A stretch of 64,000 nt of DNA, taken from positions 248,001 through 312,000 of the forward strand of contig NZ_CP134949.1 of the NCBI RefSeq assembly GCF_032116555.1. Direction: 5' to 3'. The notes under the pieces were generated by a model that was not told where the DNA came from, made no database searches, and was given only the letters and a program-made list of their open reading frames with translations. The position numbers and the translations under genes are program-made. Positions 40,989-44,522 of the stretch are shown in pieces (the first letter of the stretch is position 1; the number at the start of each line of letters is the position of its first letter). This stretch comes from Halorarum halobium (GTDB lineage: Archaea; Halobacteriota; Halobacteria; Halobacteriales; Haloferacaceae).

Positions 40989-41210
40989 GAGCCGAGTCGA
41001 ATTCGACTCACCCGAAAGTGGTCCGATCGTGTGATAAAATTGTCCTCGAACGGTGAGACGTCGATCCCGCGTCGTGACCCCGTCGACGTGTCGTGGACCC
41101 GTCCGGCCGGATGCCCTCCCGGGCGGCGATCACTGGCAAGCCAGTGGCCGGGAGTCGCCGGGGCGGAACTCGACGTCGGCCGGACCACGAGGACGTCCGG
41201 AACGTGAGGT

Positions 41211-41272
41211 GGTGGCTCGGAGAAAGCCTTCCTCAGAAGGGGTTCGGCGGGGCAAACACAGCATCTACTACT
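41211..41272 (-). pseudogene. degenerate duplicate of the box C/D sRNA gene
   Basis: keeps D' CCGA, C'-like CTGAGGA, D CCGA and 3' GCCACC plus downstream flank; box C, guides and TATA box diverged. Confidence 0.65.
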
Positions 41273-41380
41273 GGAACGACTGCCGGAAACGACGGCGAGT
41301 GAGACGCACGGGCTGCATCCTCAGCGCAGGTAACGCGGGTATCGTCAGGGACAGGTGAACGACTTCACGTCCAGTCCAAC

Positions 41381-41530
41381 TCACAGGATGAACAGAACTA
41401 CGAAGACGGCTATCACCAGGAGTAGGAGAAGGAGAAACCAGCGACTCCCGCTTTCATCATCCTTCTGTAGCTGTTCACCTCGGTGTTTGGAGTGAGAGTG
41501 CTGTTCATACCCTGTGTCGTCGTTCATCAT
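41381..41530 (-). CDS. 49-aa tail-anchored membrane microprotein
   Basis: MMNDDTGYEQHSHSKHRGEQLQKDDESGSRWFLLLLLLVIAVFVVLFIL; CTTTAT box at -30..-25; below the ORF-track cutoff. Confidence 0.6.
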   Translation of the reverse strand: MMNDDTGYEQHSHSKHRGEQLQKDDESGSRWFLLLLLLVIAVFVVLFIL

Positions 41531-41668
41531 CCGTTTTATTAGGTTCCTGACGGGATAAAGCTAACTTCGCACGTCTACCGAGGGGCCATCTCACCTCGAC
41601 CCGCGTTTGAAGGTTCGCTGGTTTCAGAACTGAAGCACCCTCTCGCGAGGGCTTCCGGAACGTGAGAT

Positions 41669-41732
41669 GGTGGCTCGGGTGAACTTCATCGTCACGAGGG
41701 GCTCGGCGGGGGTAACGTTCGTCATCGCCACC
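41669..41732 (-). ncRNA. box C/D guide sRNA (sR41-like) for 2'-O-methylation of 23S rRNA helix 69
   Basis: GGTGGC/GCCACC terminal stem; box C GCGATGA, guide GTTACCCCCG, D' CCGA, C' GTGACGA, D CCGA; TTTTTA box about 25 nt upstream. Confidence 0.82.
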
Positions 41733-41868
41733 GGGACGAACTCCGCAACCGAGACGTAAAAACCCCGCTTTGAGGAGCGCCGCCCTCGACGCCCGGTTCC
41801 CAGCCAGCCCGGAATACGGCCCGCACCTTCCACACGCTTTTCTACGCACCCACCCCCATCGGACAACG

Positions 41869-43050
41869 ATGACCGACGCGTACCTCGTCGGGGCCGGGCA
41901 GTCGCCGTTCGGGTCGTTCCCGGACGAGACGTACCGCTCGCTGTTCGACACGGCGTTCGACCGGGCGCTCGCGAGCGTCGACGGCGACCTCGACCCCGAC
42001 CGGATCGACGAGGCGTTCCTCGGCACGCTCGGCGTCGGCGGGAGACAGATCGGGCTGAGCGCGCCCGCCGTCACCGAGCACGTCGGCCTCCACGCGATTC
42101 CGACGACGCGTGTCGAGAACGCCTGCGCGTCCAGCGGCTACGCGCTCCGGAGCGCCGTCGCGGCCGTCCGGGCCGGGATGGCCGACCTCGTCCTCGCGGG
42201 CGGCTACGAGGTGATGACCGACACCAGCGCCGACCGGACGAAGTGGTGGCTCGGCGTCTCCGGCGAGACCGAGTGGGAGCGCCTCTCCGGGACGACGTTC
42301 GCCGGCGTCTACGCCCAGATGGCCAGCGCCCACATGAACGAGTACGGGACGACGACGGAGGACCTCTCCCGGGTCGCCGTCAAGAACCACGCCAACGGCG
42401 CCGAGAACCCCGACGCCCACCTCGGCTTCGAGTGTTCGCTGGAGGACGCCATGGACGCCCCCGCGGTCGCCGACCCGCTGAACCTCTATCACTGCTGTCC
42501 GACGACCGACGGCGCGAGCGCGGTGCTCGTCGCGAGCGGGGACGTCGCCCGGGAACTGAGCGACGACCCCGTCCGCGTCGCCGGCGTCGGCGCCGCCAGC
42601 GGCCGGGTCGGTCTGTTCCAGCGCCCCGGCCTGGCGTCGATTCCAGCGACCCGGACGGCCGCCGAGCGGGCCTACGGGGCGGCCGGCATCGACGACCCGG
42701 CCGGGGACCTCGACTTCGCGGAGGTCCACGACTGCTTCGCAATCGCCGAACTGCTCGCATACGAGGACCTCGGCTTCTGTGATCCGGGCGAGTCCGGTCG
42801 ACTGCTCCGCGAGGGGCGGACCGACCCGGACGGCGACCTCCCCGTCAACACCTCCGGCGGGCTGAAATCGAAGGGCCACCCCATCGGCGCGACCGGCACA
42901 GGACAGGCGGTCGAGGCGTTCAAGCAGCTCCGCGGCGAGGCCGCGGTGCAGGTCGCGGACCCGGTCCGCGGGCTGGCCCACAACGTCGGCGGCTCCGGCG
43001 GCGGCGTCACCGTCCACGTGTTCGAGCGGGCCGCGGAGGTGGACGCGTGA
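41869..43050 (+). CDS. acetyl-CoA acetyltransferase (archaeal thiolase)
   Basis: ENACASSG, EVHDCF, KGHPIGATG, HNVGG. Confidence 0.93.
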   Translation: MTDAYLVGAGQSPFGSFPDETYRSLFDTAFDRALASVDGDLDPDRIDEAFLGTLGVGGRQIGLSAPAVTEHVGLHAIPTTRVENACASSGYALRSAVAAVRAGMADLVLAGGYEVMTDTSADRTKWWLGVSGETEWERLSGTTFAGVYAQMASAHMNEYGTTTEDLSRVAVKNHANGAENPDAHLGFECSLEDAMDAPAVADPLNLYHCCPTTDGASAVLVASGDVARELSDDPVRVAGVGAASGRVGLFQRPGLASIPATRTAAERAYGAAGIDDPAGDLDFAEVHDCFAIAELLAYEDLGFCDPGESGRLLREGRTDPDGDLPVNTSGGLKSKGHPIGATGTGQAVEAFKQLRGEAAVQVADPVRGLAHNVGGSGGGVTVHVFERAAEVDA

Positions 43051-44522
43051 ATCCCGATGCCGACGCCGAACGCGGCATCCTCGCGGCCGGGGTCTACGTC
43101 CCCCGCGCCAGACTCCCCGCCGAGACGGTCGCGGACGCGTGGGGCAGTTTCGAGGGCCGCGGCATCGACACGACCGCCGTCCCGGCGGGCGACGAGGATG
43201 CCGTGACGATGGGCGTCGCGGCGGCGGAACGGGCGTTCGAGGCGAACACCGCGACCGGAACGTCGCCCGATTCGCCGGACTCGGCGTCGGTCGCGCCCGA
43301 CGAGGTCGGGACGCTCGCGTTCGCCACCACGACGCCGCCGCTGGAGGAGGAGCAACTCGGGCCGCGACTCGTCCGGGCGCTCGGCCTCCCGGACTCCTGC
43401 CGGACGTGGGAGCACGGCGGGAGCACCGCAGCGGGCGCGGACGCCATCCAGACCGCTCTCGACGCCGACGGCCCGGCGCTCGCGGTCGTCGCGGACGCGC
43501 CGGAGGGTGACCCGGCCGGCGAGGGCCACGCGTTCGGCGCGGGCGCCGCGGCGTTCCTCGTCGCCGACGACGCCCTCGTCCCCTGCGAGGCGGTCGCGGC
43601 CGCGACCGACGAGTCGCCCGGCATCCGGTTCCGGGAGCGCGGCGCGACCGACCTCGACTCGCTCGACGTGACCGGGTACGAGCGCGCGGCGACCCGCGAG
43701 ACGACCCGCCGGGCCATCGCCGACCTTGACGTCGACCCGGACGAAATCCGCGCCGCGGCGGTCCACCAGCCGAACGGGTCGATGCCGTCCCGCATCGCGG
43801 ACGGGGACGTCGTCCCCGCGGACGCCGTCTCGGCGGGACTGGTCGCGGACCGCGTCGGCGACGCGGGGGCGGCGACGGTTCCGATGGGCCTCGTCGAGGC
43901 GCTTTCGACCCCGGGCGACGGCCCCGTCCTCGCGGCGTTCTTCGGGAGCGGCGGGAGCGCCGTCGCGTTCTCGTTCGCCGGCGAACTCGACGCGGTGGCC
44001 GGGACCGACTTCGACGACGGCGTCGCCGTCGAGTACGCCGAGTCCCTCCGCAAGCGCGGTCGCCTCGGCGACGGCGAGGTCGCCGGGGGCGGCGCGAACG
44101 TCTCGCTGCCGAACTGGCGGCGGACGCTCGACGCCCGCTACGCGCTGACCGCCGGGCGCTGTCCCGAGTGCGGGACGCTCTCGTTCCCGGGCGAGGGCGC
44201 CTGCGGGGGCTGTCACGAGCGGGTCGAGTACGAGCGGGTGTCGCTCTCCCGGGAGGGGACCGTCGAGGCGCGGACGGTCATCGGCCAGGGCGGCGCGCCC
44301 CCGGAGTTCGTCGCCCTCCAGCGCCGCGAGGGCGACTACGCGGCGGTCCTCGTCCGACTCCCCGCGAGCGAGGCGGACGGGTCGGTGGTGCTGCCCGCCC
44401 AGGTGACCGACTGCGACCCCGACGCCGTCGAGGTGGGCGACTCGGTCCGCCGGACCGTCCGTCGGATCTACGACCAGGAGGGCGTCCCGCGGTACGGCGC
44501 GAAGTTCAAGCCGACGGGATAG
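43047..44522 (+). CDS. HMG-CoA-synthase-like domain fused to DUF35 (Zn ribbon/OB fold)
   Basis: DEDAVTMG, GAGAAAF, HQPN; C-terminal CPECG..CGGC and RYGAKF. Confidence 0.88.
   Translation: MNPDADAERGILAAGVYVPRARLPAETVADAWGSFEGRGIDTTAVPAGDEDAVTMGVAAAERAFEANTATGTSPDSPDSASVAPDEVGTLAFATTTPPLEEEQLGPRLVRALGLPDSCRTWEHGGSTAAGADAIQTALDADGPALAVVADAPEGDPAGEGHAFGAGAAAFLVADDALVPCEAVAAATDESPGIRFRERGATDLDSLDVTGYERAATRETTRRAIADLDVDPDEIRAAAVHQPNGSMPSRIADGDVVPADAVSAGLVADRVGDAGAATVPMGLVEALSTPGDGPVLAAFFGSGGSAVAFSFAGELDAVAGTDFDDGVAVEYAESLRKRGRLGDGEVAGGGANVSLPNWRRTLDARYALTAGRCPECGTLSFPGEGACGGCHERVEYERVSLSREGTVEARTVIGQGGAPPEFVALQRREGDYAAVLVRLPASEADGSVVLPAQVTDCDPDAVEVGDSVRRTVRRIYDQEGVPRYGAKFKPTG

Follow-up and report, generated by a model that had tools for sequence, protein, structure and literature searches.

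The window analyzed here, a 64,000-nucleotide stretch of Halorarum halobium DNA (contig NZ_CP134949.1, positions 248,001 to 312,000), carries a box C/D sRNA gene on its minus strand, divergent from a thiolase-family gene. The elements of this region are as follows, in window positions.

41669-41732, minus strand: box C/D sRNA gene, ~64 nt
41757..41762, minus strand: T-rich TATA-like box TTTTTA, putative promoter of the sRNA
41727..41732, minus strand: terminal stem, 5' strand, with two-sided changes at 5/8 pairs
41719..41725, minus strand: C box ATGACGA
41707..41716, minus strand: D' guide, complementary over 10 bp to 23S rRNA at C1:228834-228843
41703..41706, minus strand: D' box CCGA
41696..41702, minus strand: D'-C' linker, forming most of the right arm of a putative insertion site at the DNA level
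41689..41695, minus strand: C' box GTGACGA
41679..41688, minus strand: D guide, variable and orphan, with no rRNA target detected
41675..41678, minus strand: D box CCGA
41669..41674, minus strand: terminal stem, 3' strand
41869..43050, plus strand: thiolase-family gene, divergent and a neighbor only, the flanking genes varying between relatives

Positions 41869-44522 encode the thiolase and then a fused ACP-synthase-like/ChsH2 zinc-ribbon-OB protein. Every element that the original prediction quoted for a minus-strand box C/D RNA is present at its position, with the C, D', C', and D boxes in order and guides of ~10 to 12 nt, and so is the T-rich box upstream (41762-41757), with a presumed promoter role. 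When a relaxed pattern of the four boxes, modeled on this very RNA, is run on both strands of the 3.68-Mb genome, it has three matches, and only this one combines a 6-bp stem with an rRNA complement of at least 9 nt. The terminal stem has 17 compensatory cells, compared with 5.9 when shuffled, at 5/8 pairs, a control that relatedness inflates; the fold z score of the whole RNA is only -2.0, though the stem closes the C/D motif. T-rich boxes lie 22 to 45 nt 5' of the C box in 28/60 homologues and in 107/3000 random windows, and the T run at 41757-41762 also fits the end of a terminator-like hairpin.

The D' guide pairs over 10 bp with this genome's own 23S rRNA, in a region that we take to be helix 69, and this pairing, the N+5 rule, and the spacing of two downstream T residues uphold the target originally predicted, the fourth G of a run at E. 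coli position 1909. Position 41711 of the guide (N+5) pairs with the G at C1:228838, and the 10-nt complement of the guide is found in the 23S gene at C1:228834, plus one further copy on contig C3; 10-mers have a perfect rRNA complement in 233/20000 shuffles (~1%) and in 139/20000 random genomic draws. The 23S sequence given in the prediction is right in its complement to the D' guide and wrong upstream of it, where the gene reads TCAACGG rather than GAACGG. Both partners are well kept among relatives: the 9-nt core of the D' guide is invariant in 60/60 homologues, in windows picked by their match to a covariance model, and the target sequence is kept in 20/20 23S loci. The target G, the fourth of its run, is followed by T at +6 and +8, which equals the spacing of Gm1950 and pseudouridines 1956 and 1958 in Table 2 of PMC2584109 (E. 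coli 1909, 1915, and 1917), and we therefore equate it with H. marismortui 1950 and E. coli 1909. The accessible part of PMC11542601 equates G1950 with E. coli 2251, and the +6/+8 spacing supports 1909 over this equation. Helices 68 to 71 are named as methylation hot spots in the section of PMC4644070 available to us.

The host genome (68% GC, with a single rRNA operon) encodes fibrillarin, Nop, and L7Ae. We conclude from the sequence that this RNA is almost certainly a self-promoted box C/D guide of ~64 nt that would methylate a G of helix 69, with a D guide that has decayed to an orphan. Presumably transcribed from its own promoter, the RNA would act through its D' guide, together with L7Ae, Nop5, and fibrillarin, to place a 2'-O-methyl group on the fourth G.

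The orphan status of the D guide bears on another reading of the locus, a dual-contact guide with its D guide anchored on adjacent rRNA, as had been suggested, and nothing more. In Methanothermococcus, the D guide does form 10 bp (-16.2 kcal/mol) with 23S rRNA ~50 to 60 nt 5' of the target, and the best duplex falls 11 to 20 nt upstream of the G run for 22/77 halophile D guides. However, the 77 halophile D guides, all distinct, are no better than shuffles at pairing within the 160-nt region (mean of -8.08 versus -8.00 kcal/mol, SD 0.19) and pair there more weakly, on average, than in most control windows; the best pairing of the D guide in this window falls elsewhere (-6.3 kcal/mol). The suggested anchor finds no support in these comparisons, and a reading confined to it overlooks both a partial copy downstream and the features of a recombination site, described below; we consider it highly improbable. 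Two pairing roles for the D'-C' linker were also rejected: near 1793, the 23S sequence varies but does not match the linker, and the stretch concerned in 16S helix 44 is invariant even though the linker changes at positions 6 and 7.

Homologues of the guide are widespread. BLAST found matches in 30/41 genomes, and 23 loci, the one in this window included, are true homologues; the covariance model built from them (R1) matches 149/149 Halobacteria genomes and 64/141 genomes phylum-wide, and second model matches in two genomes (G123 and G133) are chance matches within coding DNA. At least 120 loci were found by pattern scan, mostly in Methanomicrobiales and also in Methanosarcinaceae, Methanococcales, and Halobacteria. 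Methanococcales homologues are dual guides: their D guide, which matches that of Rfam sR12, forms 10 bp with a stretch ~50 to 60 nt 5' of the target. Methanomicrobiales retain a GCAGGG D-guide core (78/115). Two bacterial MAG records with a methanogen-type sRNA are probably misbinned contigs. The C'/D' pyrimidine pair tends to covary (C-C in 21, U-U in 20, mixed in 15, and other in 6 of 62). There are also full-length paralogues with altered guides, with a 2-nt insertion before D' in G266 and G195, a different guide in G231, and a four-C guide in G148 and G224, for which new targets are possible.

The guide function itself is ordinary and the RNA is not new. A C/D sRNA for 23S Gm1934 of H. volcanii and Gm1950 of H. 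marismortui was predicted by Grosjean et al. in 2008 (PMC2584109), with homologues in 25 archaeal genomes, so the guide role was already known; that guide has the same target position and class as this RNA, and their identity rests on the target. The accessible parts of that account mention neither partial copies nor insertion, and those of PMC4152357 contain nothing on this guide RNA. No Rfam family reaches its gathering score for this RNA, and only sub-threshold C/D families were seen. The sR41-like label that it was first given has to be dropped, as RF01126 is a separate family whose consensus carries the tRNA-Met guide: homologues score at most 19.6 bits (gathering score, 54 bits), and an Rfam search of a 91-nt stretch does not list RF01126 down to an E value of 10. 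A search of this genome with RF01126, in which 150/1024 candidates were scored, found the tRNA-Met guide, and both RF01126 ("sR41") and RF02163 (sR-tMet) match C1:785639-785707 (40.6 and 80.5 bits) rather than this RNA. These families have the archaeal C/D class in common with it, but their guide is for tRNA-Met. The sR-tMet guide of this genome is on the minus strand at C1:785639-785707 (80.5 bits), and RF01126 shares its D guide, from which it follows that the sR41 of Rfam differs from the sR41 of the 2008 paper.

The D'-C' linker is conserved only in halophiles, with GCCCC present in 57/60 Halobacteria and in 1/115 parsed copies from the mostly methanogen pattern scan. It falls within a putative DNA insertion site in the guide gene, and a partial copy of the gene lies downstream, behind an insert of lower GC content. 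The features involved are the following.

41694..41722, minus strand: putative DNA insertion site within the guide gene
41722-41712, minus strand: left arm of the putative insertion site
41711-41705, minus strand: 7-bp core of the putative insertion site
41704-41694, minus strand: right arm of the putative insertion site
41276..41668, minus strand: 393-bp insert, apparently an old cassette (GC 0.55, versus 0.70 for the window)
41381..41530, minus strand: 49-aa ORF with a hydrophobic C terminus, the cargo of the insert, matching no Pfam family
41264..41275, minus strand: decayed 12-bp palindrome, the cassette end, with 3 mismatches to the consensus of relatives
41186..41263, minus strand: decayed arm, core, sRNA 3' half, and downstream bases, lacking the C box and 5' stem

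The decayed 3'-half copy (41186-41275) lies 460 nt downstream of the guide gene and is identical to it at 57/73 aligned columns; model R1 matches the copy with an E value of 1e-4, and homology searches placed it at 41207-41276. The 49-aa ORF has one relative, 81% identical, in Halobaculum sp. Although self-BLAST alone is nondiscriminating (3/60 windows versus 23/176 random 72-mers), the junction does discriminate, as each copy is preceded, at constant spacing, by one and the same 12-bp palindrome. The palindrome and arm of this window are the top match (24.3 bits) in the 3.68-Mb genome to a profile trained without this junction, and the decayed junction is the sole genome match to a relaxed junction pattern. 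Scored with the cassette-arm profile, both arms of intact genes rank among the top ~2.5% of random 11-mers. Such a copy is also present in both same-genus relatives, with different cargo. We read the copy in this window as an old and decayed insertion event.

Relatives carry better-preserved junctions of two types. Type A consists of a 12-bp palindrome, an 11-bp arm, a 7-bp core, and the RNA 3' half, and lies downstream of the intact gene; type B consists of the promoter and 5' half, core, arm, and palindrome, and lies upstream of it. The type-A pattern finds 16 sites in 9/401 genomes (3 of them type B sites read from the opposite side) versus 3 control sites, and the type-B pattern finds 13 sites in 10/301 genomes versus 0 controls; by pattern, the sites are thus rare, at ~2 to 3% of genomes per type. 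An exact metagenome scan returned 50 rows representing 40 distinct sites, the rows not being independent because several are repeats of one array, and at 40/40 sites the D' box, linker, and C' box come next, although the search pattern imposed none of them. Sites also occur in arrays: of type A, G495 has five and G226 has three, and G316 has four of type B. "Empty" cassettes of 89 to 98 bp, in which one site follows the next without an intervening gene, are present at G360:C1:2614922-2615011 and at G495:C2:267039-266941 and 325626-325479. The left arm of type-A sites and the right arm of type-B sites follow one consensus in opposite orientations; the inverted 11-7-11 arms are clear on the donor ends and weak in the intact gene, and the core varies at 2/7 positions, even inside one array. 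A plasmid of Haloarcula pelagica (NZ_CP126163.1) carries a perfect symmetric 53-bp site (12-11-7-11-12), and three more plasmid regions (in Halomicrobium and Haloarcula) carry decayed half sites. The tight symmetric-site pattern matches 0/301 genomes, with a diverged version in G495. The palindrome alone is not enriched (26 strand matches versus ~40 in the control, across 61 genomes) and is not associated with tRNA fragments; the viral contigs searched gave 1, 12, and 0 pattern matches, none then continuing into an sRNA half, and the phage records gave no site match.

As at an att site, a direct repeat of part of the gene bounds foreign DNA and the gene is left intact. Could ordinary homologous recombination or tandem duplication have produced the partial copies of a real guide gene, with no dedicated recombinase? 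The copies are 45 to 60 nt of near identity, the small cassettes have no recombinase, and in G157 a decayed duplicate of the whole gene (C2:12585-12656) lies 2 kb downstream without a palindrome, so other routes to duplicates exist. Against this explanation, which we find quite improbable, the copies start or stop at fixed positions with the same foreign 12+5-bp end, at constant spacing, in separate families, and on the plasmid the central stretch of the symmetric site is flanked by sRNA sequence on neither side. We favor instead site-specific insertion: the guide gene very probably doubles as an insertion site in which the invariant guide provides the constant core. The overall explanation, in which one gene does two jobs as an RNA guide and a DNA insertion site, is likely to be correct.

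The cassettes are low in GC content and rich in PIN, PemK, MNT, Fic, TumE, Dnd, and Mrr genes, and the cargo also includes UvrD, Usp, and sugar-uptake genes, giving toxin-antitoxin, defense, and transport cassettes (annotation covered 77/94 and 30/34 called ORFs). The cassettes differ between otherwise near-identical loci: genome G010 and metagenome locus L372 have flanks that are 99.5 to 99.9% and 97.8% identical around unrelated cassettes of 3.83 kb and 1.23 kb, respectively, and locus L354 joins the end of one cassette of this pair to the start of the other. Two cassette types, HTH-PemK and AbrB-PIN, are found in both orders (C>A>D in G226 and A>C in L346). These alignments demonstrate, at the level of sequence, exchange and reordering of cassettes between genomes.

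The site anatomy suggests how insertion could proceed. The site on a cassette circle would combine the palindrome with an arm of 11 bp, the core of 7 bp, and either the 3' or the 5' half of the sRNA gene; the core is made up of the end of the invariant guide and the start of D', and crossover there would rebuild an intact gene. The other gene half would stay behind the inserted cassette, and repeated events would give arrays. With 3'-half donors, cassettes would accumulate downstream of the gene, giving type A and the situation of this window; with donors of promoter and 5' half, they would accumulate upstream, giving type B; and recombination between A and B sites would yield a symmetric site and an intact gene. 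The palindrome may be an accessory binding site for the recombinase system. We infer both the circular intermediates and the class of enzyme. Given the inverted 11-7-11 layout, we hold it to be reasonably likely that the enzyme is a tyrosine recombinase supplied in trans; the variable core is awkward for a homology-dependent 7-bp overlap, and a mismatch-tolerant reaction would be needed.

Few recombinases accompany the sites. A local integrase profile run over the site-bearing loci found no recombinase inside small cassettes; most cassettes have none, and none is tied to the site. The best candidate for an autonomous element is a 27.8-kb low-GC element of G360 (G360:C1:2587058-2614922), which has a type-B site at one end and the intact gene at the other and encodes one tyrosine and two serine recombinases, a restriction-modification methylase, and a CRISPR-Cas locus. 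The same element also encodes a 166-aa ORF partnering the tyrosine recombinase, a TFIIB, and a PD-(D/E)XK nuclease. Close relatives of its recombinases are in only 2/5 and 1/5 other array genomes, with no site within ~20 kb of them. A serine recombinase, for which type B and type A would be the attL and attR of a symmetric attP of ~53 bp, would fit the 53-bp length of the symmetric site and the two Resolvase+Recombinase proteins of this element, bounded as it is by a type-B site, and their relatives are present in G226. These relatives are missing, however, from 4/5 array genomes tested, and no site is near the G226 pair; target-regenerating repeated insertion is more typical of tyrosine enzymes, and we regard a serine enzyme as unlikely. 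A recombinase beside the second-best profile match in the window's genome (C1:848791) was rejected, as it was found in 0/5 of the records tested. At C1:846000-852300, a tyrosine recombinase lies together with a replication-like ORF in a 6-kb low-GC island.

A core chromosomal enzyme could also be the tyrosine recombinase that acts in trans. The tyrosine recombinase at C1:1335567-1336622 has a close homologue in 60/61 genomes, and its family is the one common to the array genomes examined. The site might then be the dif of Halobacteria, read by a core Xer-like recombinase and exploited by the cassettes as IMEX/pdif modules. Such a role would account for the halophile-only conservation of the linker (57/60) and suits cassettes that lack integrases and carry toxin-antitoxin modules, and the accessible part of PMC7776575 reports no dif site for H. 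volcanii. The guide gene is nonetheless origin proximal, at a median of 53 degrees from orc1 among 40 chromosomes (assuming closed contigs), with 35/40 genes at <90 degrees and 1/40 at >150 degrees, rather than near the terminus; its core is 7 bp, not the 6 bp of an 11-6-11 dif site (PMC2958812, in the part available). The candidate recombinase scores 110 bits against a XerA cut-off of 220, and the altered-guide paralogues keep the linker, which fits an RNA role. We consider a dif site doubtful, and a terminus dif is rejected. The 53-bp site is a concrete substrate with which orphan haloarchaeal recombinases can be tested; according to a 2026 report (PMC13532300), the XerA-like enzymes of haloarchaea have no recognition motif identified to date.

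Sequence evidence for the insertion site and the cassette arrays is good, and neither seems to have been described before. No paper on the junction motif or on insertion into archaeal C/D genes was found in a literature search that covered subscription journals, theses, and supplements thinly. The site can serve as a marker for the pool of defense and toxin-antitoxin cassettes in hypersaline communities, and the guide gene, being in every Halobacteria genome searched, is a possible neutral insertion site. More tentatively, and at somewhat less than even chances, Halobacteria may have a cassette platform of their own, in which a host recombinase at the guide-gene site loads, stacks, and reshuffles integrase-less defense and metabolic cassettes on either side and swaps them with megaplasmids, in the manner of integrons or pdif modules without attC or dif, the RNA sequence being partly frozen for its DNA function.

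The proposed insertion resembles integration into archaeal tRNA genes by the SNJ2 family (PMC5861418 and PMC8371274, in their accessible parts), in which a short conserved RNA gene is hit and the element supplies the missing part. Here, in contrast, insertion is into a C/D guide gene, donors may carry either the 3' half or the promoter plus 5' half, and the small cassettes lack an integrase and are stacked in arrays. The non-tRNA integration targets given in the accessible part of PMC8371274 are only intergenic and protein-coding sites, and the guide motif is missing from the SNJ2 supplement (PMC5861418). With integrons, including archaeal ones (bioRxiv 10.1101/2022.02.06.479319, in the part available), the arrays share tandem cassettes of one to two genes, rich in toxin-antitoxin modules and variable in order, a fixed adjacent entry site, and a junction between G and TT, but each site here carries half an RNA gene and has no adjacent integrase. 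An integron was rejected: there is no attC hairpin (mean fold z score of 0.03), the inverse core is present in 1/21, and no intI lies by the entry site, as none of 10 scanned proteins exceeds 42 bits against TIGR02249, for which the cut-off is 265. Xer/dif, IMEX, and pdif systems have in common with these sites the 11-bp inverted arms, AT-rich flanks, integrase-less modules, and locations on both chromosomes and plasmids. Unlike the Xer/dif site (PMC2958812, as far as its accessible part goes), the site described here has a 7-bp core, is origin proximal, and lies inside an RNA gene.
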